A DNA stretch of 64,000 nt. It comes from Minisyncoccota bacterium. Its GTDB lineage: Bacteria; Patescibacteriota; Minisyncoccia; Phycocordibacterales; UBA9973. The notes below the pieces were generated by a model. The model saw only the letters and a program-made list of their open reading frames with translations, was not told the DNA's origin and searched no databases. A program made the position numbers and the translations under genes. Within the stretch, counting starts at the first letter, position 1, and each line of letters starts with the position of its first letter. Shown here piece after piece: positions 20,517-52,275 of this stretch. The stretch covers positions 295,544-359,543 of the forward strand of contig JBAZVG010000001.1 of assembly GCA_041661005.1 (NCBI GenBank). Direction: 5' to 3'.

Positions 20517-20669
20517 CAAAGCACTTACATGAAAAAGAGCACACTGCTGTGCTCTTTTTCATGTAAGTGCTTTGTGAAGACGGAAGTATGTTTTTCCAGT
20601 AAGAAAAACAACTGAGTCCGGGGCTGGAAAATTTTCTTTTGACGAAAAGAAAATTATTGTGGCTCACAT
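20513..20669 (+). repeat. tRNA-Glu 3'-flanking repeat element, copy A (perfect 29-bp-stem hairpin + ~95 bp conserved tail)
   Basis: Begins inside the tRNA 3' end at 'GTCACAAAGCAC'. Hairpin CACAAAGCACTTACATGAAAAAGAGCACA-CTGC-TGTGCTCTTTTTCATGTAAGTGCTTTGTG. The following ~60 bp are near-identical to the reverse complement of 52081-52207. Confidence 0.75.
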
Positions 20670-21397: not shown

Positions 21398-21495
21398 GCA
21401 AGTTCGCAGTATCAAGCCGTGAGGAAGTCGCGATCCGTGACACTCGCGGCTTTCTCATTTAAATATAAGAAAATTCTTTATCTGATCGAATATCA

Positions 21496-21524
21496 GATTC
21501 CAATTCATGGTACAATGTGTCACA
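21496..21524 (+). promoter_or_regulatory. Promoter-like recurrent motif, copy F (diverged): GATTCCAATTCATGGTACAATGTGTCACAG
   Basis: Matches the GTTCCAATyTCGyAyAATTAGggTCACA family. Contains an extended -10 'TGgTACAAT'. Sits 6 nt upstream of the ATG at 21530. Confidence 0.4.
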
Positions 21525-21529
21525 GATTT

Positions 21530-22108
21530 ATGAAATCTTTTTTTAGAAAAATTCGTCACAAAACAATTACTCGAAAGTTAGTTATTCCGAAAAATGCTTC
21601 TATTCTCGACACTTCTTGCCAAGATGGTGGATTTTTATCCATACTCATGAAGAACAATGAAGGTAAGAATATTAATATTTTTGGTATTGATATAAGTTCT
21701 ACAGATGTGGAGGCAGCTAAAAAAATAATTCCAACTGGAATTTTTAAAATTACAGATAATAGTTCAATCCCATTCGGGGATAAGACATTCAATACTGTTG
21801 TAAGCTCTCTGACTCTCCACCACATGTCTCAACCCGTAAAATCATTTAATGAAATGAAGCGAGTACTAAAAGATGACGGCTCTATTTATTTAATCGATAT
21901 AATTTCAGAAAATACTGTTTTTAATTTTATCTTAAAACACATAAAGTGTCCTGAACCATATCATTTTGAGAAATTTTATTCCTTAAAAGATCTTAATGAA
22001 TTGTTGACAAAAACAAAATTAAAAATTTCCCAGAAAGTAAAAATACTAACTTTTCCGACCCCCAGTGTTGTTACACCAGTTTTATTAGTGGAATTAAAAA
22101 AGGATTGA
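21530..22108 (+). CDS. Class I SAM-dependent methyltransferase (Methyltransf_11-like)
   Basis: Motif I 'ILDTSCQDGGFLSIL', post-I acidic 'IFGIDIS', motif II/III region. The longest ORF starts at 21419, but a promoter-like motif lies inside that extension, so the 'MKSFFRK' start was preferred. Confidence 0.55.
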   Translation: MKSFFRKIRHKTITRKLVIPKNASILDTSCQDGGFLSILMKNNEGKNINIFGIDISSTDVEAAKKIIPTGIFKITDNSSIPFGDKTFNTVVSSLTLHHMSQPVKSFNEMKRVLKDDGSIYLIDIISENTVFNFILKHIKCPEPYHFEKFYSLKDLNELLTKTKLKISQKVKILTFPTPSVVTPVLLVELKKD

Positions 22109-22134
22109 AAAACTCTTTATCTGACTGAATAGCC

Positions 22135-22163
22135 GGTTCTGATCTCGCACAATTAGGGTCACA
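22135..22163 (+). promoter_or_regulatory. Promoter-like recurrent motif, copy A: GGTTCTGATCTCGCACAATTAGGGTCACA
   Basis: -10-like CACAAT; the ATG of the 22170 gene is 7 nt after the motif. Confidence 0.4.
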
Positions 22164-22169
22164 CGAAAA

Positions 22170-22736
22170 ATGCCAACCATAGATACTTTAGAAAAAATAA
22201 TTAATACATTAGACCCAGTTAATCCTTATGAGGATGATAGAATGTTGATCTTGTATTGCAGTTTATTTATTGAAGATTATGTAGAAAAAATATATTCACA
22301 AGTAAAAGGAAGCGTAAAATACAAGGATTGCAAATACTGCGGAAAAACCTCAAAACCAGGTTTTTTGAAAAAAGTAAAAGAACTAGCCGATGAAGGCTAT
22401 ATAAATAAAGAAGTTGGACATGATTTGATTATTGAAGAAATATGGAAACACCGAGGACCGGCAGTTCATGAAATAAATCTAGATGTTAGTAAAATCATTG
22501 AAACTGTTGAAAAATACACTAGAGATTCAAAAAGAGATGACCCTCATGGGTTATTAGAGAAATTGTTTAAAAATATAAGTTGGAGAAAAAAACTTCAAAT
22601 GCCTTCAATTGCGATAGTTTTTACTCTTAACCAAACACTGAGTAATATTTTAGGAACTTCCACAAATAAGAAATTAGAATTTGAGATTGATCCGAATTGT
22701 ACAAATATTCGCTCTAAAATTATTAGTTTGGATTAA
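22170..22736 (+). CDS. Hypothetical protein (188 aa)
   Basis: ORF flanked by motif copies A and B. Confidence 0.45.
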   Translation: MPTIDTLEKIINTLDPVNPYEDDRMLILYCSLFIEDYVEKIYSQVKGSVKYKDCKYCGKTSKPGFLKKVKELADEGYINKEVGHDLIIEEIWKHRGPAVHEINLDVSKIIETVEKYTRDSKRDDPHGLLEKLFKNISWRKKLQMPSIAIVFTLNQTLSNILGTSTNKKLEFEIDPNCTNIRSKIISLD

Positions 22737-22766
22737 AGGTAAATAGTTTTATTTGACTGAAAATCA

Positions 22767-22795
22767 AGTTCCAATTTCGTACAATTAGGGTCACA
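22767..22795 (+). promoter_or_regulatory. Promoter-like recurrent motif, copy B: AGTTCCAATTTCGTACAATTAGGGTCACA
   Basis: TTGACT at 22753 and TACAAT inside the motif. Oriented antisense to the following minus-strand gene. Confidence 0.4.
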
Positions 22796-22805
22796 AAAAT
22801 TAAAT

Positions 22806-22845
22806 TTAAAAAGCCAACAAACTTTTCTCCTTTCGGTGTGTTGTT
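22806..22845 (-). terminator. Hairpin terminator of the 22911-23270 gene; loop motif shared with 4201-4242
   Basis: GCCAACAA...TTGTTGGC stem with loop 'CTTTTCTCCTTTCGGTGTG', followed on the minus strand by a TTTTT run. Confidence 0.45.
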
Positions 22846-22910
22846 GGCTAGTATGAATTAATTAGTAACTCACAACTTGCTCGACATACGAGCGTGTTTT
22901 TGTAAAATTC

Positions 22911-23270
22911 TCATACGACAGTTGCATTTAGAATGTTTCCATCTTCTTTCAATGCAGTGACGGTAAGTCGAGCTCCGTCAAGTTCAAGCATCAAGGCGAA
23001 AGATCTTTCACTATTTTCTTCCACCTCAATATTCTCAACGTCGTACCCTAGCTGTCGGTAATACCCCGTGGTGAGCTCCTTTATGACATCCATAGGGGTT
23101 TCTTCTAAAAGACCTAGTCGAATGTGTTCAAAGTTTCCTGGATCAACATGATCGGCGAGTGTATTTCCGTCCGACATGTCGATTGCAGCCAAAGAAATCA
23201 TGTCTGCAACATCCAGCTCAGAACAGGCCAATTCCTGAACTAGAAACATCTTTAAGGTTAAATCTTGCAT
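22911..23270 (-). CDS. Hypothetical acidic protein (119 aa), GC-richer
   Basis: ORF between motif copies B and C. Confidence 0.4.
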   Translation of the reverse strand: MQDLTLKMFLVQELACSELDVADMISLAAIDMSDGNTLADHVDPGNFEHIRLGLLEETPMDVIKELTTGYYRQLGYDVENIEVEENSERSFALMLELDGARLTVTALKEDGNILNATVV

Positions 23271-23437
23271 ATTTTTGAAGACTAAGGGTTTATTTCAAAA
23301 GGATACTGCTAGGCATCCAGAACTGTTTAATTTAAAATATATATTATTTAGGTTATTGTCAAGTACGCCTAATTCTTGGCCTCGAGTATTAATTCCAAAA
23401 AATGAAGCATGGAAACCCTTTATATAATTCAGGATTA

Positions 23438-23465
23438 GGTTCCAATCTCGCATAATTAGTTCACA
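23438..23465 (+). promoter_or_regulatory. Promoter-like recurrent motif, copy C: GGTTCCAATCTCGCATAATTAGTTCACA
   Basis: -35-like TTCAGG, 17-bp spacer, -10 CATAAT. Abuts the stop of the 23471-24142 (-) gene. Confidence 0.4.
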
Positions 23466-23470
23466 AATCT

Positions 23471-24142
23471 TTATCTTAATTTTCCACCAATCTCAGAAGA
23501 AGGACTCTCATTTTTCTTGCCAAGATATTTAGTTTCATACCAAGCTTTTAATTCGGGTATCTCTTTAATTTGTCTTATGACTGAATCTCGATAACTTCCA
23601 GTTTCTCCAACTTCTTTATCAAGCAATTCCTGCATTAATGGCTGTTCGGCACTGATTGAAATTTTTTCAATCGGAATGTCATCAGTAAATATTACTTCAG
23701 GTAAAACAAATGGGTATCGCTCCGGATGCCGCAAGTATTCTGCAATAGGAACCTTGGAACCAATGTATTTTCCTTCTGCGATTTTCCTTTCATTATAAAT
23801 TTCTTTTCCGCCACCTTCAGAACCGATTTTATAAAGAAACTTTTCTATTTCTCCTCTATCAACAACAAAAACATTTTTATCACTTTCGTCTACTTGTATT
23901 TCAAGCAACATTCTTCCAATGTCTCTTGTGAGGTGAAACCATATATCAGGGAATTGAGTATTGTGTGTCCAATTTTTAGGCACCGGTTCCAAAAGAGCGA
24001 AAACAGCCCCAGTATCCAAAGCATCTTCATGAACTTGACCAACTCTACGAATTGCTCCCAACCCCGACTTATCACGAGATTTCCAAGAGCCCTTTTTAAT
24101 AAGAGCCCAGTTGTCTAATGAAGTATAGTGATAAACTTTCAT
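23471..24142 (-). CDS. Hypothetical protein (223 aa)
   Basis: ORF between motif copies C and D. Confidence 0.45.
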   Translation of the reverse strand: MKVYHYTSLDNWALIKKGSWKSRDKSGLGAIRRVGQVHEDALDTGAVFALLEPVPKNWTHNTQFPDIWFHLTRDIGRMLLEIQVDESDKNVFVVDRGEIEKFLYKIGSEGGGKEIYNERKIAEGKYIGSKVPIAEYLRHPERYPFVLPEVIFTDDIPIEKISISAEQPLMQELLDKEVGETGSYRDSVIRQIKEIPELKAWYETKYLGKKNESPSSEIGGKLR

Positions 24143-24200
24143 AATTCAATATTACAACTTTAATACAAAATTTCAAAACCCTTTATTCTACTAAAAATCT

Positions 24201-24228
24201 GTTTCCAATCTCGTATAATTAGATCACA
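24201..24228 (+). promoter_or_regulatory. Promoter-like recurrent motif, copy D: GTTTCCAATCTCGTATAATTAGATCACA
   Basis: Consensus -10 TATAAT. Lies 46 nt upstream of the 24274 ATG. Confidence 0.45.
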
Positions 24229-24273
24229 ATTCAGAAACTTGGCTTAAAAAATAATTAAAGCTATACTCTTACC

Positions 24274-27957: not shown

Positions 27958-28908
27958 TTATTTTACTTGCCCCGCCTTGGCGGTGGTTTTCTCTATGATT
28001 CTCAACTTAGCGCTTCTTGACCTCGGATTATTTTTTATTTCATCACCACTCGCTAAAATCACTTTTTTATTTATCAATTTTGCTTTTCCTTCCTCTACTT
28101 TCTCTTTATAAAATCTTTTTACTATCCTATCCTCTAAGCTATGAAAAGAAATCACTGACATCCTCCCGTTTGCTTTCAACAACTTGAAACCTTTATCTAA
28201 ACCTTCAGCGAGCGCTCCCAGTTCGTCATTGACCGCTATTCGTATTGCCTGAAAAGTTCTGGTGGCAAAATGCAGTCTTCCCCTCTTGTATACAGCTGGC
28301 ACCGCATCACTGATTATCTTTACTAAATCAAAAGTCGTTTCAATCTTCGCCTTTTGCCTGGCTTCCACTATCCCCTTGGCTATCCTTCTTGAAAACTTTT
28401 CTTCGCCATAGCCATAGATAATGTCAGTCAAGCTTTGCTCGCTCCAAGTATTTACGACGTCCTTCGCCGTAACATCTTCCGGGCGAGGATTTTCCTTCAT
28501 GGTCATGATGAGTGGCTCATCTTTCATAAAAGAAAATCCTCTTCCAGAAACATCAAGCTGATCAGAACTCAAACCCAAATCAAGAATAATACCGTCCACT
28601 TCCCCGACTCCCATTTGTCCCAAGACTTTGTCGATATTCCTAAAATTGTCATTTACGAAAGTTGTGTCGCAGTTCTTGAATCTATCTCTCTCTGCAAAAA
28701 CATTTTTATCCTGATCTAGGGCGACAATCTTCACATCGAGATATCTTTTGCAAATTTCCAAACTATGCCCTCCGCCACCGAATGTGCCGTCTATCACGAC
28801 CCCATTGGATTTTAAATTTAAACCATCTATTGTTTCTTTTAAAAGAACTGTCTTGTGCCTAGTGCCAACCATCTGCGCCTTTGTCATCCTATTTCCCCTC
28901 ATCTCCAA
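27958..28908 (-). CDS. rsmH: 16S rRNA (cytosine1402-N4)-methyltransferase RsmH (MraW)
   Basis: 'HKTVLLKETIDGLNLKSNGVVIDGTFGGGGHS', 'ALDQD' and other MraW motifs. Confidence 0.9.
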   Translation of the reverse strand: MEMRGNRMTKAQMVGTRHKTVLLKETIDGLNLKSNGVVIDGTFGGGGHSLEICKRYLDVKIVALDQDKNVFAERDRFKNCDTTFVNDNFRNIDKVLGQMGVGEVDGIILDLGLSSDQLDVSGRGFSFMKDEPLIMTMKENPRPEDVTAKDVVNTWSEQSLTDIIYGYGEEKFSRRIAKGIVEARQKAKIETTFDLVKIISDAVPAVYKRGRLHFATRTFQAIRIAVNDELGALAEGLDKGFKLLKANGRMSVISFHSLEDRIVKRFYKEKVEEGKAKLINKKVILASGDEIKNNPRSRSAKLRIIEKTTAKAGQVK

Positions 28909-29344
28909 GCTTCTCCGCCAATTGCTCCGCCTGCTTTTCGATGACTACCTTATTTTCCGACCATGCCTTTTCATTCCAAACTTCCACCCTGTCCTTGACT
29001 CCGATAATTGCCGCTGAATTTTTCAAACCGATTTTATCTTTAAGAAAATCCGGAATTAACATCCTGCCAATCGAATCGATCTCCACTTCTGCCGCCCGTC
29101 CGAACATGTATCGATTAAAACTTCTTTGATCCGCTTTCAAGAAAGATAAATCAGAATCCGAGTCAGAAAGTTTTTTGGAAACTTTTTCCCATTCTTTGAT
29201 TGTAAAAATGAAGAGGCATTGACCGAGTCCAGGTGTGATAATAATTTTCTTGCCAAGTTCGCTACGGAATTTTGCCGGCATAGAAACTCTGTTTTTTTCA
29301 TCTATTGTATGTATGTATTCGCCGATTAACATATGTTTTTTCAA
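28889..29344 (-). CDS. mraZ: Transcriptional regulator MraZ
   Basis: Tandem MraZ repeats ('GEYIHTIDEKNRVSMP', 'AAIIGVKDRVEVW'). Confidence 0.85.
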   Translation of the reverse strand: MKKHMLIGEYIHTIDEKNRVSMPAKFRSELGKKIIITPGLGQCLFIFTIKEWEKVSKKLSDSDSDLSFLKADQRSFNRYMFGRAAEVEIDSIGRMLIPDFLKDKIGLKNSAAIIGVKDRVEVWNEKAWSENKVVIEKQAEQLAEKLGDEGK

Positions 29345-29436
29345 AAATTACTATTTGCACCTTCTTTTTGTATTTCCCACTTTTTCCCACTTGATATACA
29401 TTGTATGCTACATATAAAATAACACCAAGCGCAAAC

Positions 29437-29679
29437 TGTGGATAACTTTTTGGACTTTGATTGTCGAAAGTTTTACAATATGGAGGTTGGTGATGGTTTC
29501 CTTCAGTTGGTTGTTTGCCTGCTGGGTGCCTCTCCGCTTCCGTGTGAGTGGGGAGGCACCCAAATTTCAATCTTCCGCATGGAAGATATCTGGCGCCTAA
29601 AAACGCCAAAAGATGTCCTCGAGAATCTGATTCCCGGGGCATTTTCATTTTTAGGAGACAATCTCTATTCTAGATTCTT
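29437..29679 (+). ncRNA. Structured element copy 1 (~243 nt). Conserved 5' (DnaA box TGTGGATAA + TTGGAC-N17-TACAAT) and 3' ends; variable central hairpins.
   Basis: The 5' 52 nt and 3' ~55 nt are near-identical to 31164-31394. Central hairpins GGGTGCCTCTCC...GGGGAGGCACCC, TCTTCCGCATGGAAGA and TGGCGCC..GGCGCCA occupy the same positions as different-sequence hairpins in copy 2. Strand unassigned. Confidence 0.4.
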
Positions 29680-29718
29680 AGTTTTCTGCACGCTTAAGGA
29701 CGTTTATGAAATCGTGTC

Positions 29719-30030
29719 TCATAATTTTCCCAATGCTTTCCATATATCATCTTCAGAAATACCATTATTTTTTCCATATCTCAAAATATTTTTAAAAATA
29801 GTTTTATTTGCCTCCTTATATAAATTTGGCATTACTGTCGAAATCAAACTTTTAGAGTCATTAGGATTAGTATTTTTCGGATCTCTCAATGAGAGATAAT
29901 GAGATGTTCCGCTCTTGCTTCTTGATATAGTCAAATTAAGTTTGTCTGCTGTTCGTATCCAATCCAACTGGCTAATATTTTTTAATCCATTAGCAAACAA
30001 ATCTTTTCTAAGAATATCGTCGTTAGCCAT
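29719..30030 (-). CDS. HicA-like (YcfA family) putative toxin
   Basis: 'SKSGTSHYLSLRDP...' resembles the HicA 'G(S)H...P' core. Sits immediately downstream of the HicB-like gene with a 4-nt gap. Confidence 0.4.
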   Translation of the reverse strand: MANDDILRKDLFANGLKNISQLDWIRTADKLNLTISRSKSGTSHYLSLRDPKNTNPNDSKSLISTVMPNLYKEANKTIFKNILRYGKNNGISEDDIWKALGKL

Positions 30031-30034
30031 ATAT

Positions 30035-30346
30035 TTAACATAGACTGTATTCTATTTTTATTGGACTTTTGATGTTTTCGAATTTAACATTGAAAGCAGA
30101 ATAAATAGCTTCACGGAGTTCAGAGTCAATCTCTAACTGAGAAGGATTAGGATTAGTATTACCGGCTATTAAGCCTTCCACTTCTAGACAAGTAGCAACC
30201 CACCCATCTTCATGTCTTTGCACACTAAAAGTCAGGCTACCAATTTTTTGTATTTGAGAAATTACCCTATTCCTTTCTTCTAGGGAAACATTGGGATTAT
30301 TCCCAAAAACATCAGCATATTTTTTTTCTTTATCCATAGTATTCAT
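30035..30346 (-). CDS. HicB-like (UPF0150) putative antitoxin
   Basis: 'FSVQRHEDGWVATCLEVEGLIAGNTNPNPSQLEIDSELREAIYSAF' matches the HicB/UPF0150 RNase H-like fold pattern (DGW-VA-C.E..GL...G.T..EA...L.EAI). Confidence 0.5.
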   Translation of the reverse strand: MNTMDKEKKYADVFGNNPNVSLEERNRVISQIQKIGSLTFSVQRHEDGWVATCLEVEGLIAGNTNPNPSQLEIDSELREAIYSAFNVKFENIKSPIKIEYSLC

Positions 30347-30420
30347 TATAACACAGCACGATATAAAATCGTGTTACACATCTATATTCCTTATACTACT
30401 TATTTTTCACTTATTGTCAA

Positions 30421-30630
30421 TTAAAGACCGTTACGGTGTAAACAGCTTTCATATTTATCTTTATTAAAATTAATACCAGGAGAGTATCTTTCTAAGGCAG
30501 ATAATCCCGTTAGATTTCCTCCTGCACATTCTTTTCTGATATTATTTGGTCTGTATTCATACCAATAAAAGAGGAATCCTGCTATCACTACAAGAACAGA
30601 AATTATTAAAATAATATAATTTTTTTTCAT
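30421..30630 (-). CDS. Small membrane protein (69 aa)
   Basis: N-terminal TM helix. Confidence 0.35.
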   Translation of the reverse strand: MKKNYIILIISVLVVIAGFLFYWYEYRPNNIRKECAGGNLTGLSALERYSPGINFNKDKYESCLHRNGL

Positions 30631-30656
30631 ATATTTTATATAATATTATAATGTTA

Positions 30657-31127
30657 TTAAAAACCTAAAAGCTCCCATATAAACTTAGCAATTGTAGTTA
30701 AAACCACACCTATAATAAATGGATAAAACCATGGGGTGTCTTCATAAGCATAAGTAATAAAATAGACCCATCTGTTTATAAAACTACCATTTACTAATTT
30801 TCTACCTCTAAGTCCAAGGCGCAACACATCTTGTTTGTAGCCAAAAACATCAACTATTGCGGTTTCTAAGTAATCATCTTTTTTGGCATCTTTTATCTCG
30901 TCAAAAAGCTTAATTTCACTATCACTGGCAAAACTTTTTTGCTGTTGAAGATACTTTACAAACTCTTTCTGTTCTCCATTTAAGATACCCAGACGAAGCC
31001 CTTGATGACTTTCCCTTTGATAAGCATCTAAAGATCTAGTCTCAATATATCTATTAAGATAACAACATATTTTAGTTATTCTTATCATTTGCTTTATTTT
31101 ATCATATATTTTTGTTTTCATAGTCAT
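30657..31127 (-). CDS. Hypothetical protein (156 aa) with C-terminal TM segment
   Basis: ORF that is first in the 4-gene minus-strand cassette. Confidence 0.4.
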   Translation of the reverse strand: MTMKTKIYDKIKQMIRITKICCYLNRYIETRSLDAYQRESHQGLRLGILNGEQKEFVKYLQQQKSFASDSEIKLFDEIKDAKKDDYLETAIVDVFGYKQDVLRLGLRGRKLVNGSFINRWVYFITYAYEDTPWFYPFIIGVVLTTIAKFIWELLGF

Positions 31128-31163
31128 TTTCGTTAATTTTTAATTATGTTATGAGGGGTTAGG

Positions 31164-31394
31164 TGTGGATAACTTTTGGACTTTGGTTGTCGAAAGTTTT
31201 ACAATATGGAGGTTCCCTTCCGGGTAGTGGTTGTGTTCCCCGAGGAGGCCCCCTCGCACCACCGAGCGCACGGTGCGAGGGGGCGAAGTAGTAGCTCTTT
31301 TGTGTCTATACACATCGGTGTCGGAAGACACCAAAAAGCGGTCCCAGAATCTTTGATTCCGGGGCCTTTGCATTTTTAGGAGACAATCTCTATT
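31164..31394 (+). ncRNA. Structured element copy 2 (~231 nt)
   Basis: Same conserved ends as copy 1. Central hairpins CCCCCTCGCACC...GGTGCGAGGGGG and GTGTCT..AGACAC replace those of copy 1 at equivalent positions (structure conserved, sequence not). Confidence 0.4.
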
Positions 31395-32862
31395 CTAGAT
31401 TCTTTGGTTTCATAGTCGGGAAAAATATAATTTCTTTTATATTTTGCGTATCAGTCAAGAACATCACGAGACGGTCAATCCCTATGCCGACTCCCCCCGC
31501 CGGAGGCATGCCATATTCCATCGCTTCTAGAAAATCTTCGTCTTTCCTCTGAGCATCTGTCTCGCCACTTTTTTTATTTTCTTCCTGTTCTTCAAAACGC
31601 GCCCGTTGATCGAGCGGATCATTTAATTCAGAAAACGCTTTGACTAACTCCACACCGCCGACGACTAGCTGAAAGGCTTCAACAAATTTAGGATTTTTTA
31701 TTTTTCGTTTTGCTAAAGGCAAATATTCCGCTGGATAATCGATAATGAAAGTTGGATTAATCAATTTCGGACGGCAAAGCTTTTTATAAATTCCATCTAA
31801 AAGTTTGGGCACAGAATCTTCTTTGTTTACAACTATGCCACATTTTTCCGCCTGAATTTTTAAATCTTCTTTAGAAATAGATTCCGCGTCAATACCGCCA
31901 TATTCTTTCAATAAATCAAAGTAGGAAAATACGGAGAATTTTTTGGAAAAATCTATATTTTGATTATTATAAGTTATTGAATCGCTTTGCTTTATTTTTT
32001 TAACTAAAATCTTAAAAATTTTCTCCACAAAAGCCATCTGTTTGTCTGCATCACTGAAACTTTCATAAAATTCAATCATGGTGAATTCAGGATTGTGGGT
32101 CATATCAATTCCCTCATTTCTAAAGTCTCGAGCAATTTCATAAATTTTCGGAAAACCAGCGACAAGCATTCGTTTTAAATAAAGTTCATCGGAAATTCTC
32201 AGATACATTTTCATATTGAGCGCCTTATGTTCTGTGACAAATGGTTCTGCCGTAGCCCCGCCATACAGAGGCTGAAGAGCTGGAGTCTCAACTTCCAAAT
32301 ATCCGTTTTCATCAAAGATTCTTCGCAATTCAGTGATGATTTTAGAACGAGTGAAAAATCTTTCTTTGACTTCGGCAGACATCAGAGCATCTAAATATCT
32401 TTTTCGAAATCTTTCTTCCACGTCCACTAGGCCATGCCACTTTTCCGGCAATGGTCGGAGACTTTTGGAAAGCATCCGCCAATCTTTCGCTTCCAACGTC
32501 TTCTCTCCCCTTTTGGTGGTAAAAAAAGCGCCTTGGATTTCTATAAAATCTCCTATGTCCACCACTTCGCTAAAGAAATTAAATTTCTCATCGGCCAAGA
32601 CATCTCTTTTGAGTAAACCCTGAAAAGTCCCAGTGCCATCATCTAACGTTATGAAGACAATAGCCCCCTGCCCGCGGATCGACATTACTCTTCCGGCGAT
32701 CCATTTAGTCTTTTTTTCTTTTGATAAATTATCAAAATCCTCCGTCGCGTCTTTTAGAGTTAGTTCTCTTTCTGAATTTGCCGGATACGGGTTCACACCC
32801 TTTTCCTCTAAGAGTTTAAGTTTTTTTAACCTAGCATCTCTAATTTCATCAATTGAAGACAT
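31390..32862 (-). CDS. lysS: Lysyl-tRNA synthetase (class II)
   Basis: N-terminal OB anticodon-binding domain. Class II motifs 1-3 ('FRNEG', 'GGVGIGIDRLVM'). Confidence 0.9.
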   Translation of the reverse strand: MSSIDEIRDARLKKLKLLEEKGVNPYPANSERELTLKDATEDFDNLSKEKKTKWIAGRVMSIRGQGAIVFITLDDGTGTFQGLLKRDVLADEKFNFFSEVVDIGDFIEIQGAFFTTKRGEKTLEAKDWRMLSKSLRPLPEKWHGLVDVEERFRKRYLDALMSAEVKERFFTRSKIITELRRIFDENGYLEVETPALQPLYGGATAEPFVTEHKALNMKMYLRISDELYLKRMLVAGFPKIYEIARDFRNEGIDMTHNPEFTMIEFYESFSDADKQMAFVEKIFKILVKKIKQSDSITYNNQNIDFSKKFSVFSYFDLLKEYGGIDAESISKEDLKIQAEKCGIVVNKEDSVPKLLDGIYKKLCRPKLINPTFIIDYPAEYLPLAKRKIKNPKFVEAFQLVVGGVELVKAFSELNDPLDQRARFEEQEENKKSGETDAQRKDEDFLEAMEYGMPPAGGVGIGIDRLVMFLTDTQNIKEIIFFPTMKPKNLE

Positions 32863-43587: not shown

Positions 43588-44466
43588 TTAGTTAATTAAA
43601 GTATAAACTTTTTCTAAGAATGTTTTAGCCTGTTCGTTTGTTCTTGCACTTTGACCTTTAAATAACCAGAGCAAGTCACTAACTTCAGCATATTCATGAG
43701 CTGTTTCAACAACAGACATATCTGCATATAGCTTTTTAAGGACATCATTCACTTTTTCTTTATGAGTATAGTTTTTAAAATGAGGATGCGGAACATTCCA
43801 GACCAAGCACTCCAAGAAAAATGATGGCATTGCTTTATCGTCAATGTGGTTATTATCAATCAGATGATTTCTACAATTTTTAATTGTTCTTACTATTGAT
43901 TTATAAATTTGATCCGTATTTTTGTTTTTCTCAACACCGTTTTCATAATGTTGTTTTGGAAAACTCCTTACTCTATTACCGTCATCTGAAACAAGCTCAA
44001 TGCCTTCAACTGAAACTGTTGTAGCACTACTAAATCTTTTATGAACAAAACATGCTATCACATCGGCATTAACGCGATAGGAATTTTTATTCACTCTTAT
44101 ACATTTATTTTTTCTTTCTACAGAACTAGAGAAGTTATTCTTAAGCACTTGCTCAACATCATTTTTAAATTGTGAAAATTTATATTCACTAGTACTATAA
44201 TAAGCCTTATGTAAAGCCTTATCTTGAGGTGAGAGACTTGATATTTCTGGGAAAAACGCATCTTGGTAGCAAACAACTATATCAACATCACTATCTTGTC
44301 TTACATTGGTACTGTTTTTATATGAACCTTGTAGAAAAATATCAACTTTTGATCCAAATTTCTCTTTTAATACTTTTGTTATGGAAGCAACAGTTGCGGA
44401 ACACCTTGCGTTTTCAGTTTCACTAAGTGGTTTAGACCAGTTTTGAAGTTGTTGTTCTGTAATCAT
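43588..44466 (-). CDS. Pol-beta superfamily nucleotidyltransferase, SMODS/CD-NTase-like
   Basis: Core 'LQGSYKNSTNVRQDSDVDIVV' (GS...[h]DxD NTase motif) and a downstream acidic residue. Confidence 0.55.
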   Translation of the reverse strand: MITEQQLQNWSKPLSETENARCSATVASITKVLKEKFGSKVDIFLQGSYKNSTNVRQDSDVDIVVCYQDAFFPEISSLSPQDKALHKAYYSTSEYKFSQFKNDVEQVLKNNFSSSVERKNKCIRVNKNSYRVNADVIACFVHKRFSSATTVSVEGIELVSDDGNRVRSFPKQHYENGVEKNKNTDQIYKSIVRTIKNCRNHLIDNNHIDDKAMPSFFLECLVWNVPHPHFKNYTHKEKVNDVLKKLYADMSVVETAHEYAEVSDLLWLFKGQSARTNEQAKTFLEKVYTLIN

Positions 44467-44526
44467 ATGTAAAGTGTGGATAACTACTACTTGTATACAT
44501 TCTAATTATTTTCTATAATACTATAC

Positions 44527-46392
44527 ATGCTCACAAAAAAGCAAGTGGATATCTTAAAGTTTATAAAAACTTATAGGGAGAAAAATGGCTATGCCCCCTC
44601 TCTTGAGGAAATAAAGAAAAAGTTTAAAATGGCATCGGTCTCAACAGCTCACTACTATATTAGCAAGTTGCAAGATGCTGGTTTTTTAAATAAAGAACAC
44701 AATCAACCTCGCGGTGTTTCCACAAAAGAAGCAAAACAAACTGTTGAAATTCCTATACTTGGCGCAATCGCCGCAGGACAGCCGATTGAGGCAATAGAAA
44801 TTCCAGACGAAACAATAACAATTACGAAAGATGAAATAGGACAGCAAGGGAAACATTATGCTTTACGCGTTCAAGGTAGCAGTATGATTGACGAAGGTAT
44901 TTTTGACGGTGACATTGTGGTTATAAGAAAACAAGAAGTCGCGGAAAATGGACAAACTGTTGTAGCTGTAATTGACGACAATGAAGCAACGCTAAAAAAA
45001 CTTTATCGCGAGAAAGGAAGATTCAGACTTCAACCCGCAAATCCGACCTTGTTTCCAATTTATAGAGACGAAGTAGAAGTCAGAGGCGTAGTTGTTAAAA
45101 TAATTCGCAACCTTGAATCACAACTTGACCAAGGGCAATCGAGAAAAGAAAAATATGTTCGTAAAATAGATTACTCATGGGATTATAGGGGGGAGAAAAC
45201 AAAATCATACACACACGGAATACATACTTATCCTGCTATGTTTATTCCCCAAGTCGGGCGGAGATTACTAGAAACTTATAGCAAGGAAGGCGACACTGTT
45301 TGTGATATTTTTTGTGGCTCTGGGACTGCTCTTGTAGAAAGTAGATTGCTGGGAAGAAATGCTTATGGTATTGATCTGAATCCGCTTGCCATTTTTCTTG
45401 CACATGCAAAGACAACACCAATTAATCCTCAAAAACTAACAAAGGAATACATAACATTATTAGACCGAATAGAAAAAATAAAAGACAACCAAATAAAAAG
45501 ACCTGAATTTAATAATATAGATTTTTGGTTTAAAGACAAAGTTATAGTTAAACTTGCCAAACTGAAAAAAGCTATTAAAGAAATAAAAGACCAGTCAATC
45601 CAGAATTTCTTAATGGTTGCCTTTAGTGAAACTGTTCGCTACTCATCAAATTGTAAAAATGGTGAGTTCAAATTGGTGCGTGTTAAAAGGGAAAAACTTG
45701 AAAAACATGATCCTGATGTTCTGGGAATTTTTCGTAAACATGCAGAAAAAAATATAGTTGGAATGACTCAATTTTTCAAAGATGCAAAAAAGGATTCATG
45801 GACAAAAATTATATATGGAGATTCATCAAAAGATAATGGTATAAAAGAAAAATCCATTGACTGCATTATTACTTCTCCTCCATACGGAGATAGTCGGACA
45901 ACAGTTGCTTATGGTCAATTTTCTCGTTTATCTGCTCAATGGATTGATATATTTGATGATCCAAATGACGCTTCGGGCGTAGACAACGCTTTGCTTGGTG
46001 GTAAAGCTACAAAAAACTTAATCCATCTATTGCCATCAGATTATTTAAAAGAATCATTAGAAAAAATTGCCAAACAAGACGAGGTAAGAGCAAGAGATGT
46101 ATTGAGTTTTTATATCGGATTAAGTGACTGCTTGAAACAAGCATATAAAATTCTAAAATCTAAAAAGTATTTCTGTTTAGTAATTGGTAATAGATTAGTT
46201 AAACAAGTTAGAATTCCTACAGATTTTATAATTGCTGAATTAGCCGAGAAAATAGGATTTACTTGCGAGGATATCATAGTCCGAAATATTCCAGGCAAAA
46301 GAATGCCGATCAAAAACTCCCCGACCAACATTGTCGGCGCTTTAGAAGAAACAATGAATAAAGAAAGTATTGTTGTGTTAAGGAAAAACTAG
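44527..46392 (+). CDS. Fusion protein: complete LexA-like repressor (wHTH + S24 peptidase) joined to an amino-methyltransferase (N4-C/N6-A; SPPY type)
   Basis: aa 1-~200: LexA N-terminal HTH, Ala-Gly cleavage site ('GAIAAGQP'), 'VQGSSMIDEGIFDGDIVVI' (Ser nucleophile), 'ATLKKLY' (Lys). aa ~230-621: MTase motif I 'DIFCGSGT' and motif IV 'IITSPPYGD'. Single continuous 621-aa ORF. Confidence 0.7.
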   Translation: MLTKKQVDILKFIKTYREKNGYAPSLEEIKKKFKMASVSTAHYYISKLQDAGFLNKEHNQPRGVSTKEAKQTVEIPILGAIAAGQPIEAIEIPDETITITKDEIGQQGKHYALRVQGSSMIDEGIFDGDIVVIRKQEVAENGQTVVAVIDDNEATLKKLYREKGRFRLQPANPTLFPIYRDEVEVRGVVVKIIRNLESQLDQGQSRKEKYVRKIDYSWDYRGEKTKSYTHGIHTYPAMFIPQVGRRLLETYSKEGDTVCDIFCGSGTALVESRLLGRNAYGIDLNPLAIFLAHAKTTPINPQKLTKEYITLLDRIEKIKDNQIKRPEFNNIDFWFKDKVIVKLAKLKKAIKEIKDQSIQNFLMVAFSETVRYSSNCKNGEFKLVRVKREKLEKHDPDVLGIFRKHAEKNIVGMTQFFKDAKKDSWTKIIYGDSSKDNGIKEKSIDCIITSPPYGDSRTTVAYGQFSRLSAQWIDIFDDPNDASGVDNALLGGKATKNLIHLLPSDYLKESLEKIAKQDEVRARDVLSFYIGLSDCLKQAYKILKSKKYFCLVIGNRLVKQVRIPTDFIIAELAEKIGFTCEDIIVRNIPGKRMPIKNSPTNIVGALEETMNKESIVVLRKN

Positions 46393-47925: not shown

Positions 47926-48225
47926 TTAGATTCTAAAATACGAAACCATATGTCCAGTTTTTCCATTCTGTTTTATTTTTCCTTCTTTTTCGAGTTGTGA
48001 AAGATATCGGGTCGCTGTTGCGTCAGATACATGAAGAAATTTCTCGACTTCGTCATTTGTAATTTTAGATTGTTTTAGAAACAAAGACATCACTTTATCT
48101 AATTTCTTTCGCTTTCGGAATTGAATTGCGTTTCGAGCTGTGATTAGAAGTTCGCGAACAAAAGACTTTTTAGTGGTTGAGTAAGGACTACCCTTGCTCA
48201 ATGTTTTATGAGTGAGTTTGTTCAC
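47926..48225 (-). CDS. Hypothetical protein with C-terminal winged-helix (99 aa)
   Basis: 'VSDATATRYLSQLEKEGKIKQ' wHTH-like. The N-terminus overlaps the repeat hairpin 48199-48220. Promoter-like motif copy E lies upstream. Confidence 0.4.
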   Translation of the reverse strand: MNKLTHKTLSKGSPYSTTKKSFVRELLITARNAIQFRKRKKLDKVMSLFLKQSKITNDEVEKFLHVSDATATRYLSQLEKEGKIKQNGKTGHMVSYFRI

Positions 48226-48602: not shown

Positions 48603-48611
48603 TACTTGTGT

Positions 48612-48678
48612 GAGTAAGGACTACCCTTGCTTAAGGTACACTTCGCGTGCAACATATGACGTGAGCCACAATAAAATT
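48612..48678 (+). repeat. Module-X repeat (hairpin GAGTAAGGACTACCCTTGCTT + AAGGTACACTTCGCGTGCAACATATGACGTGAGCCACAATAA)
   Basis: Near-identical to 52008-52070. The hairpin alone is also present at 48199-48220. Confidence 0.65.
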
Positions 48679-51664: not shown

Positions 51665-52013
51665 TTGAAGGTCTATTGTCTTTTACAAACTCCTGATCTT
51701 CTTCCTCATTAAAATAATAATCAAGCAAAATATTTATTTTCTTTTTTTGGTCTGCAATTGCTTTATGTGTGCTGTCATTAACAAGATAATCACGTACACT
51801 ATCATCACCAGAATCTATTATAAATTGGTTTAATTTATGGATTTGCTTCCACAATCTTTTTACTTGAGCTTTAGGAGAATACACAAAGTAGAAGGCTAAT
51901 TCTCCGCCAACATAAGCTCCAACCAAAAATATAATTATTGATTTTATCATAATTAAGTCGTGTTTCCATTTTACCCTTTTTTTAATACTATTGAAAGACA
52001 ACTGGTTGAGCAA
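51657..52013 (-). CDS. Membrane-anchored hypothetical protein (118 aa)
   Basis: N-terminal TM helix. First gene of the block, next to the tRNA-flanking repeat. Confidence 0.35.
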   Translation of the reverse strand: MLNQLSFNSIKKRVKWKHDLIMIKSIIIFLVGAYVGGELAFYFVYSPKAQVKRLWKQIHKLNQFIIDSGDDSVRDYLVNDSTHKAIADQKKKINILLDYYFNEEEDQEFVKDNRPSIE

Positions 52014-52207
52014 GGACTACCCTTGCTCAAGGTACACTTCGCGTGCAACATATGATGTGAGCCACAATAATTTGCTCGTCGTCACTCGCAAATTTTCCAG
52101 CCCCGGACTCAGTTGTTTTTCCTACTGGAAAAACATACTTCCGTCTTCACAAAGCACTAGAAAAAGAGCACAGCAGTGTGCTCTTTTTCTAGTGAGTGCT
52201 TTGTGAC
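52008..52207 (-). repeat. tRNA-Glu 3'-flanking repeat element, copy B (module X + conserved tail + 25-bp-stem hairpin with a 4-nt bulge)
   Basis: The reverse complement of 52081-52207 aligns to 20513-20640 with few substitutions. 52008-52070 matches 48612-48678. Confidence 0.75.
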
Positions 52208-52275
52208 CCCACAGAGAATCGAACTCTGATTACCGGATTGAAAACCCGATGTCCTAACCGTTAGACGATGGGGCC
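52204..52275 (-). tRNA. tRNA-Glu (anticodon UUC)
   Basis: Hand-folded. Acceptor GGCCCCA/TGGGGTC; D-stem GTCT/GGAC; anticodon stem TCGGG/TCCGG with loop TTTTCAA; T-stem CAGAG/CTCTG with loop TTCGATT; discriminator A. Confidence 0.8.

Follow-up and report, generated by a model that had tools for sequence, protein, structure and literature searches.

What are the two structured repeats that enclose four small open reading frames (ORFs) between lysS and mraZ in this stretch of a Minisyncoccota genome? The whole stretch of 64,000 nucleotides (nt) is here referred to as the window. On its minus strand, lysS (31390-32862) is followed by the four small ORFs (29719-31127), by mraZ (28889-29344) and then by rsmH, an ftsL-like gene and a PBP gene, and one repeat stands on either side of the ORFs. 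A previous sequence-only reading described the repeats as a functional RNA of about 240 nt with conserved ends, flanking a HicAB-like cassette. The best reading of the unit appears to be a small RNA (sRNA) gene of ~165 nt, whose promoter and terminator are common to two paralogues with unlike bodies, and not a 240-nt RNA. Taken as a whole, the data are probably explained best if each copy is an independently transcribed, regulatory sRNA gene on the + strand, belonging to a clade-wide family and duplicated around the cassette.

The extent of the repeats is set by two blocks. A 27-nt block on the 5' side (29461-29487 and 31187-31213) and a 34-nt block on the 3' side (29646-29679 and 31371-31404) each occur exactly twice in the 64 kb, with a chance expectation of 0. 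In a self-BLAST of the region, the 5' homology joins 29437-29488 to 31164-31214 (52 nt, 96%) and the 3' homology joins 29608-29686 to 31334-31411 (81 nt, 86%), which bears out the near-identical ends seen in the sequence-only reading. The copies are direct, copy 1 occupying 29437-29679 as first proposed and copy 2 occupying 31164-31404; the end of copy 2 was formerly placed at 31394 and has to be moved to ~31404, because the 34-nt block and the BLAST homology extend that far. Between these ends lie centres of 119 nt in both copies, whose similarity is barely above that of shuffled sequences (15 of 500 shuffles reach the same score) and whose GC content is 54% and 61%, against 38% for the window. 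The centres were also correctly described as unlike in sequence with equivalent hairpins: the folding z-scores against shuffles are -5.3 and -4.5, the + strand folds better than the - strand in both copies, and a GC hairpin of 12-13 base pairs (bp), a small hairpin, a stem called P2 and a terminator hairpin recur at equivalent places. The parts of the two units are as follows.

29437-29446, + strand: DnaA-box-like site TGTGGATAAC of copy 1, 8 nt from the mraZ -35 and 3-4 nt from the sRNA -35
29450-29479, + strand: predicted sRNA promoter of copy 1 (TTGGAC / TGGACT, spacer of 17-18 nt, TACAAT), from consensus and the fixed offset from the box in homologues
29486-29652, + strand: predicted sRNA-1 transcript, ~165 nt, from folds and inferred ends
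29524-29561, + strand: P1 of sRNA-1
29570-29587, + strand: small hairpin of sRNA-1
29592-29607, + strand: P2 of sRNA-1
29617-29639, + strand: terminator stem of sRNA-1
29640-29652, + strand: T-rich tail of sRNA-1
29653-29679, no strand: repeated 3' flank AGGAGACAATCTCTATTCTAGATTCTT, a copy of the lysS-proximal flank including the lysS tail (KNLE, stop)
31164-31173, + strand: DnaA-box-like site TGTGGATAAC of copy 2, from a pattern match
31176-31205, + strand: predicted sRNA promoter of copy 2 (TTGGAC / TGGACT, spacer of 17-18 nt, TACAAT), from a promoter scan
31212-31377, + strand: predicted sRNA-2 transcript, ~165 nt, from folds and inferred ends
31248-31284, + strand: P1 of sRNA-2
31301-31314, + strand: small hairpin of sRNA-2
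31317-31332, + strand: P2 of sRNA-2, with a GGAA loop
31340-31366, + strand: terminator stem of sRNA-2
31367-31377, + strand: T-rich tail of sRNA-2
31378-31404, no strand: native flank from the sRNA terminator to lysS, with the lysS stop (31390-31392) and its last four codons

In both folded promoter-to-terminator transcripts the order is a 5' region, the GC-rich P1 of 12-13 bp, the small hairpin, P2, AAAA and the terminator. P2 is GGCG/CGCC in copy 1 and GGUGUC-GGAA-GACACC in copy 2, while the terminator hairpin is CCUCG-A-GAAU / AUUC-C-CGGGG in copy 1 and GGUCCC-A-GAAUC / GAUUC-C-GGGGCC in copy 2; in both cases the 3' block starts inside this hairpin. As the hairpin has an A-run before it and a T-rich tail after it, we read it as a bidirectional intrinsic terminator, and a simple scan scored the minus-strand version in copy 2 as the lysS terminator. 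The 3' block is this terminator plus the flank holding the lysS tail, and the overlap of copy 2 with the lysS stop is real and takes in the last four codons as well. The junction of the 3' flank with lysS is also seen in L081, a relative without the cassette (L with a number is the label of a fetched locus).

The 5' block seems to consist of the DnaA-box-like site and a sigma70-type promoter, and only ~3 nt of it would lie past the predicted start; it should be almost wholly untranscribed, because transcription is expected to begin near 29486 in copy 1 and near 31212 in copy 2. Both copies carry TGGACT-N17-TACAAT. The sigma70-like promoter of the sequence-only reading is therefore present at both copies with a different spacing, since its TTGGAC leaves a spacer of 18 nt and N17 holds if TGGACT is read. 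Of the former proposal of a functional RNA, the RNA itself on the + strand remains the best reading, together with helices kept by compensatory changes, and what falls is the idea that the conserved ends are RNA ends. Likewise, the alternative that was named at that time, a duplicated promoter region in place of an RNA, turns out to be half true, as promoter and terminator are the parts kept identical.

The same reading had proposed a covariance model for related genomes. Loci were fetched through LysS, through MraZ homologues and through a DNA pattern for the MraZ operator, TTCCCACTTNTTCCCACYTGATA, which recovered 95 metagenome stretches, 80 of them listed as loci; of the genomes reached by scanning with LysS, only L001 is a close relative, the others being from unrelated phyla. 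The comparison set contains 79 distinct mraZ upstream regions, with the window counted. MAFFT and RNAalifold on 19 of the 3' modules recovered P2 only and misaligned the terminator, and this alignment was replaced by a covariance model of P2 plus terminator made from 11 sequences with a hand-given structure and searched in the window and 141 loci. In the window only the two copies matched, sRNA-1 at 29586-29652 (69.5 bits, E 1e-18) and sRNA-2 at 31312-31377 (72.1 bits, E 1.5e-19). The model had matches in 37 of the 79 regions, with a single copy in 30, two copies in 4 and three copies in 3, and the helices covary. All significant matches (E <0.01) have the same orientation relative to mraZ and lie 125-1950 nt from the MraZ-repeat pattern, and in every match a covarying hairpin of 9-11 bp is followed by a T-rich tail.

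The gene order greA-lysS-gap-mraZ-rsmH is conserved in the relatives, and most of those with a structured gap carry the unit on the strand opposite mraZ. L001 (LysS 85% identical) and L081 (MraZ 91% identical) have one copy each and no cassette. In the homologues, the -35 element (T/A)TGACT comes 14-16 nt after the box begins, and the -10 element TAtAaT is preceded by a conserved AAGTTT. This promoter is followed by a GC-rich body with no conserved sequence, then by (A/U)AUC-P2-AAAA, where the P2 consensus is AUC-GGCGYC...GRCGCC-AAAA, and by a terminator that is often CCCGAGAAUC-NNN-GAUUCCGGGG. Judged from these comparisons, the unit belongs to a gene family that appears widespread in Paceibacteria/Nomurabacteria, located between lysS and mraZ and pointing away from mraZ. 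A strict DNA pattern with two anchors had no match in metagenome contigs, and two DNA patterns had none in viral contigs. Our literature search yielded no description of the RNA unit and no described sRNA of Patescibacteria or the Candidate Phyla Radiation (CPR); the unit would therefore be a small-RNA gene for which we found no previous description, of a known type, the stand-alone sRNA gene.

Two side observations concern other loci of the set. In L094/L095, L190 and L195, the box is followed at the sRNA position by a GC-rich and hairpin-rich stretch of >400 nt with its own TTGACT-N17-TATAGT promoter and common motifs such as AATTTGTTCTTTGCAGATGC; Rfam gave no match for L094, and the stretch may be a larger related or fused RNA. 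Moreover, L094-L100 have a class I lysyl-tRNA synthetase (PF01921) between greA and mraZ, in the place of the class II enzyme of the window and most relatives, and here two non-homologous lysyl-tRNA synthetases are swapped at one syntenic slot.

Base pairing is kept across the family. In the model-fitted alignment of P2 and terminator, with 36 distinct sequences, the share of paired cells is 92%, where shuffles give 73% and slid partners 30-53%, and 15 of 15 pairs have changes on both sides. For the 95 nt upstream of P2, the 37 copies have a median z-score of -4.7 (33 of the 37 below -2) and a median longest helix of 12 bp, with no conservation of sequence: the long GC-rich hairpin keeps its shape and not its sequence. 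In 28 of the 37 copies it is the + strand that gives the more stable fold of the two (binomial p 0.003), which points to G-U pairs on the + strand. The whole-body fold energies were used for this comparison, as the count of G-U against A-C in the model alignment (61 vs 39) is inflated by loop-edge columns and is uninformative.

The variable bodies also have words in common. In 47 copies the most strongly enriched 5-mers are GGAGG and CCTCC/TCCCC, and GTGGG/CCCAC is enriched to a lesser degree (z ~4.4). GGAGG resembles a Shine-Dalgarno sequence and CCTCC/TCCCC an anti-Shine-Dalgarno sequence; CCUCC is located in the apical loop of P1 in L084 and L088. We also considered whether the long hairpin is a decoy MraZ operator (GTGGG-N5-GTGGG) and rejected this, because a regular-expression search of the 110 nt before each 3' module gave no pair with the N5 spacing in any copy; one such pair was noticed by eye in L001, but outside the 110-nt range.

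The next question is how the unit relates to mraZ, whose own control elements lie beside copy 1.

29376-29390, - strand: MraZ-binding repeats, GTGGG-N5-GTGGG on the mraZ strand and CCCAC...CCCAC on the + strand
29400-29428, - strand: predicted mraZ promoter, -35 TTGGTG (29423-29428), spacer of 17 nt, -10 TACAAT (29400-29405), from consensus

The MraZ operator is known to consist of GTGG repeats at a 10-nt period (bioRxiv 10.1101/2022.02.09.479790), and the mraZ promoter is kept at the same place in the relatives. We read mraZ as a protein of 151 amino acids (aa), while the recorded gene starts 4 codons later. Since the promoter and operator of mraZ lie between the element and the gene, the element is ruled out as a leader or promoter region of mraZ. 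The sequence-only reading had placed the copies directly upstream of mraZ and of the cassette, which is so in position; judged from the predicted promoters and operators, they seem not to be upstream regions of mraZ or of the ORF2-ORF1 pair in the sense of a leader, as each of these has its own promoter and operator.

The DnaA box stands between the two genes. As first reported, the 5' end of each copy holds a perfect box: the 9-mer TTATCCACA on the mraZ strand (TGTGGATAA on the + strand) is present at 29437, 31164 and 44475, against 0.57 expected in the window. Counted from where the MraZ-repeat pattern begins, the box TGTGGATAA(C) lies at a distance of 51-74 nt in 76 of the 79 mraZ upstream regions, and in 75 of these the distance is 61-74 nt; this places it ~8-10 nt past the mraZ -35, whatever follows. 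It is there when a plain terminator follows (L107, L116, L193, L208) and when small protein genes on the + strand follow (L119, L123, L133, L199 and others). Because it occurs in so many regions, whether or not they have the RNA, the box belongs not to the RNA but, as a clade-wide element, to the mraZ promoter region. As the sRNA unit is oriented away from mraZ, the -35 elements of the two predicted promoters stand back to back with the box between them, and the promoters have it in common. Secondary sRNA copies carry degenerate boxes (TGTTGATAAC, TGCTGATAAC, TGTGGACAAC) with 1-2 mismatches.

A DnaA site at mraZ has a precedent in Bacillus subtilis, where repression of yllB (mraZ) and ftsL by DnaA bound at the promoter was reported (PMC2533591). 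The candidate boxes suggest DnaA control of the dcw operon across the Paceibacteria clade.

Two further observations touch these elements. The third box TGTGGATAAC (44475-44484, +) lies between a SMODS/nucleotidyltransferase-like gene (43588-44466, -) and a 621-aa ORF (44527-46392, +) with a LexA DNA-binding domain, Peptidase_S24 and DNA-methylase domains, and it is directly upstream of a promoter-like TTGTAT-N17-TATAAT before this lexA gene. The start of mraZ (29329-29335, codons 2-4; AUG UUA AUC GGC GAA) contains AUCGGCG, the same 7-mer as the 5' flank and 5' strand of P2 in many sRNA copies, a match that may be explained simply by the conserved residues M-L-I-G-E.

The cassette between the copies has the following parts.

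29680-29718, no strand: conserved block at the 3' end of the cassette (...TTTTCTGCACGCTTAAGGACGTTTATGAAATCGTGTCTCA), with the half-operator GACACGATTT, from the alignment with L139, L213, L217 and L188
29719-30030, - strand: ORF1, 103 aa, invariant motif SGTSHY..RDP, downstream gene of the module
30035-30346, - strand: ORF2, 103 aa, upstream gene of the module, weak HicB-like fold signal
30347-30420, - strand: predicted module promoter (TTGACA, spacer of 16-17 nt, TAGTAT / TATAAG) and palindromic operator ACACGATTTTATATCGTG, the same in L209
30421-30630, - strand: ORF3, 69 aa, hydrophobic N-terminus resembling a membrane anchor, found in the window only
30657-31127, - strand: ORF4, 156 aa, no family match, found in the window only

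The name HicAB-like is not supported for it. Neither ORF1 nor ORF2 matches HicA, HicB or any other family of Pfam or NCBIfam, even at E<=5; their family profiles found nothing relevant among PDB sequences, and none of the 26 homologues of the two has an entry in the precomputed Pfam field. These homologues are few (11 and 15 clusters) and unannotated. The AlphaFold2 model of ORF1 (pLDDT 85) has no PDB match with E <0.6, and in a Foldseek search the model of ORF2 (pLDDT 65) gave the HicB-like antitoxins 3k6q and 1wv8 with probabilities of 0.54 and 0.44 and E ~0.2, which is marginal, so that the label is unproven. The layout is that of a putative toxin-antitoxin (TA) module: two small genes 4 nt apart or overlapping, with their own predicted promoter and palindromic operator, in varied contexts, namely the lysS-mraZ gap, a coaD-like neighbourhood and a uvrC-ddl neighbourhood. 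An operator half-site also follows the ORF1 stop. The 16 nt after this stop were considered as a target of the sRNA and rejected, being this half-site of the module's own operator. The GC content of the cassette is 30%, against 38% for the window.

A non-coding block of ~85 nt (CAAAGAGAG.TTCTCTT..TAGTC.GTA.TTTATTGCA.GCTTAAGGA..) is found at the 3' end of the inserted two-gene modules in the window (29653-29718), in L139 (1480-1575) and in L213, L217 and L188. Its first part resembles the native flank between sRNA and lysS, and it is kept even in L139, where the genes are unrelated. It may reflect common descent or a function in the 3' untranslated region.

Cassettes between units, and units in tandem, recur in other lineages. 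Two such gene orders are as follows.

L131/L217: mraZ, box-sRNA a, box'-sRNA b, ORF1, ORF2, box''-sRNA c, lysS
L188: the same order as L131/L217, with a different right-hand neighbour

In L131, the flank that unit c has on its lysS side is repeated at unit b, which adjoins ORF1; copy 1 of the window likewise bears a repeat of the flank next to lysS. Units a and c of L131 have near-identical modules of P2 and terminator. L139 has an unrelated gene pair between two 3' modules, each followed by a repeated flank; homology of this pair to ORF1/ORF2 was ruled out (hhalign probabilities of 0.2% and 1%), and so was its identity as HicAB, as Pfam gave nothing. Units in tandem with nothing between them are found in L131, L188 and L102, each unit with its own degenerate box and promoter, and the covariance model places two (L137) or three (L192) 3' modules close together. 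The ORF1-ORF2 pair occurs without repeats in L213, L209 and L220, and in L213 it lies in the same gap with no sRNA.

How, then, did the window come to have two copies? It appears to contain an insertion, consisting of the TA-like ORF2-ORF1 module and two further ORFs, between two paralogous units, and homologous recombination is the most likely origin of this state. A circular DNA with a unit and the cassette could have integrated Campbell-style at the resident unit through a single crossover in the common 3' block; alternatively, an unequal exchange between tandem units would give the same outcome, and the same repeats would permit excision. Homologous recombination would explain why both copies are complete, why their blocks are near-identical while the bodies are unlike, and why copy 1 holds a lysS tail. 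Among the ORFs in or beside the cassette (27-34 kb) there are no integrase, transposase or Xer-type genes. Terminal inverted repeats score as in shuffles, and the flanks differ, with no target-site duplication. The homology ends at different points in the window and in L131, and the copies are confined to a single locus. We examined the 3' flank as a dif/Xer site and rejected it, because only CTAGAATA matches B. subtilis dif and the remainder differs.

Two other loci have repeats of their own near the box or the sRNA. In L174, a 24-nt direct repeat, CCAAGCTCC(C)ACCTGTGGATAACT, at 62-85 and 1076-1098 (coordinates of the extracted segment, counted from the MraZ-repeat pattern) spans the -35 side of mraZ and the box, and it flanks a 1-kb gene on the + strand inserted at the box. 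In L186, three copies of a hairpin GCCAAAGCCTTGCTTTGGCAA after the sRNA bracket inserted genes, and a second TGTGGATAAC follows before a helix-turn-helix (XRE-like) gene.

What would such a unit do? The + strand unit is conserved and oriented, with promoter-like, structured and terminator parts. Most likely it would act as a regulatory sRNA, its transcription being tied to that of the dcw operon by the common box, and specific recognition is suggested by the conserved AUC flank and the covarying P2. A secondary effect in cis is conceivable, in which termination and opposing transcription insulate the downstream promoter from read-through, and the terminator would also end the transcript of the converging upstream gene on the other strand. 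Several points weigh against this explanation. Transcription and the transcript ends are deduced from consensus; the promoter scan of this AT-rich region gave 12 hits where 9.7 are expected, which is not above chance; and the T-runs on the + strand of the window are interrupted (CATTTTCATTTTT, TTTGCATTTTT) and received no score as terminators in the simple scan. The covariation alignment, being fitted to the model, leans to the modelled structure, the - strand also folds well, and AAAA before the terminator could be conserved because of lysS termination on the - strand. There is hardly any constraint on the sequence of the body, which would be expected if the element were no more than a hairpin or a terminator, and 42 of the 79 regions have no copy under this model, so that the RNA seems dispensable. 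A body so free to vary, in an RNA that half of the relatives do without, speaks for a modest or structural role. As to the recombination route proposed for the duplication, no cassette-free strain of the species and no circular form was seen.

Some of these points fit a different explanation, namely that the unit is an insulator or terminator module, whose GC-rich hairpins end or stabilise the upstream mRNA (lysS or ORF1) and whose opposing promoter only blocks read-through into the strictly controlled promoter that follows (that of mraZ or of the cassette), the RNA being a by-product. This is the main alternative. Each unit indeed stands between two successive minus-strand genes, where the first has ended and the second has yet to start, its terminator is bidirectional with a minus-strand version that a scan recognises, relatives without the unit have a plain bidirectional terminator there (L107, L116), and the body is unconstrained except for pairing. 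We nevertheless consider it unlikely, because the unpaired 5' flank (A/U)AUC of P2, its A-rich loop and its covarying stem are kept in distant members and are superfluous to a terminator, promoter sequence and spacing are conserved, the + strand folds significantly better, and tandem copies without an intervening gene (L131 a-b, L188 a-b, L102) add no insulation. That the unit encodes a small protein deserves hardly any credence: an ATG right after the -10 opens frames through both copies (ORFs of 153 aa at 29438-29899 and 67 aa at 31176-31379), but the translations agree only where the DNA is identical, the homologues have no ATG or conserved frame, the ATG is upstream of the expected transcription start, and the variation preserves helices and not codons.

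The flanking position of the copies leads to another explanation, in which they are recombination sites of a mobile cassette (attC-like, att or like the ends of miniature inverted-repeat transposable elements), with recombinase cores as ends and a spacer hairpin as centre. Direct repeats with variable hairpin centres do flank TA-like cassettes in four lineages (window, L131/L217, L188 and L139), the direct repeat around the insert of L174 ends in TGTGGATAACT, and the 3' block of the cassette is independent of the genes that accompany it. This is nonetheless very unlikely, as the recombinase genes, inverted repeats and target-site duplication mentioned above are missing, the ends TGTGGATAAC and AGATTCTT do not fit the attC cores RYYYAAC / GTTRRRY, the homology has no fixed ends, there is mostly one copy at a fixed locus with none dispersed (both copies of the window being at this locus), and the gene pair also occurs without repeats. 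A highly divergent housekeeping RNA missed by the Rfam models (6S, signal recognition particle (SRP) RNA, RNase P, transfer-messenger RNA (tmRNA) or a riboswitch) is more improbable still. CPR RNAs are often divergent, 150-240 nt is within the range of 6S RNA, and the unit is single-copy and syntenic in many genomes; on the other side, 5' hairpin, P2 and terminator without pairing of the 5' and 3' ends are unlike the 6S rod, and an RNA missing in about half of the relatives and multi-copy in others is unlike an essential one. Rfam 15 at gathering score gave only 4 tRNAs in the window and 0 matches in nine relatives; at E<=10 the region 29300-31500 gave only spurious small nucleolar RNA and microRNA matches outside the copies, at E<=1 ten loci with ~20 copies gave one spurious match and none that is relevant, and ARAGORN found no tmRNA. 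These scans agree with the earlier failure to match the elements to RNase P, tmRNA, SRP or 6S. Beyond these explanations, we regard as doubtful the more far-reaching idea that the unit is a sensor of replication status, in which DnaA at the common box would balance dcw against the sRNA, and at the same time, by virtue of promoter and terminator blocks kept nearly identical in its paralogues, a portable homology for the capture, excision and exchange of TA-like cassettes by homologous recombination, as a recombinase-free analogue of an integron array. The regulatory + strand sRNA gene remains the explanation that we prefer.

The window has other repeats away from this locus. A repeat of 31-64 nt (TGAGYAAGGACTACCCTTGCTYAAGGTACACTTCGCGTGCAACATATGA...) is present at 48174-48204, 48607-48674 and 52003-52070 with 87-95% identity, one copy being near a tRNA-Glu gene (52203-52275). 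A 47-nt sequence with a hairpin and a T-run (GAAAAAGAGCACA...TGTGCTCTTTTTC) occurs on the + strand at 20531-20577 and 52160-52206 (85% identical), and its copies adjoin two tRNA-Glu genes on opposite strands, each copy lying immediately past the 3' end of its neighbouring gene. Finally, five copies of a 48-nt segment at 21477-24229, 632-763 nt apart and with 60-81% identity to the reference copy, probably mark a run of paralogous genes.

CPR/Patescibacteria have tiny genomes with few recognisable regulators. If our explanation is true, a conserved and syntenic sRNA gene diverges from the master promoter that drives the cluster for cell division and cell wall, with an apparent DnaA site in common, and it would be a concrete candidate for coupling replication to division in CPR bacteria. 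The copies of an RNA gene around TA-like modules would also offer a simple case of the movement of small cassettes in genomes with few mobile-element enzymes. If the RNA is merely a terminator or insulator, the finding shrinks to an unusually elaborate intergenic module.

Among known systems, integron attC arrays resemble the locus superficially, in having structured repeats with conserved ends and variable centres beside small promoter-bearing TA-like cassettes in several genomes. The differences are that there is no IntI, that R''/R' core sites are absent and the junctions unfixed, that each repeat here has its own promoter and terminator, and that most genomes have one copy and no cassette. 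The likeness to islands that integrate at tRNA or tmRNA genes is superficial as well: there, too, an RNA gene bounds the inserted block and repeated RNA-gene sequence is found on both sides; in the window, however, both copies are complete with unlike bodies, there is no integrase, and the homology consists of promoter and terminator and not of the 3' part of the RNA. In type I TA systems such as RatA/txpA and SR4/bsrG of B. subtilis, the antisense RNA is convergent with the toxin mRNA, with which it overlaps at the 3' end. In the same way, sRNA-1 converges on ORF1 with a bidirectional terminator in common, and therefore the 3' ends of both transcripts would be complementary. The overlap here is limited to the terminator hairpin, the RNA family is found mostly in genomes without the cassette, and ORF2-ORF1 looks type II-like (protein-protein) with its own operator, all of which is unlike type I TA.

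The comparison is closer for the promoter region and for the RNA gene itself. As in the control of yllB-ftsL in B. subtilis, a DnaA-type box is located in the mra promoter region; unlike in B. subtilis, this CPR clade has a single perfect box, predicted from sequence, between two divergent -35 elements and also before an sRNA promoter. Stand-alone sRNA genes of bacteria have a sigma70 promoter, GC-rich hairpins and a Rho-independent terminator, the RsaE/RoxS type of Firmicutes being an example. The window unit differs from the RsaE/RoxS type in having no Rfam similarity, a fixed position divergent from mraZ and a box common with mraZ, and in a body that evolves so fast that paralogues of the same genome barely align. 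What it has in common with stand-alone sRNA genes is a unit of its own from promoter to terminator with 150-240 nt, helices kept by compensatory changes, and the enriched words CCUCC/UCCCC and GGAGG.

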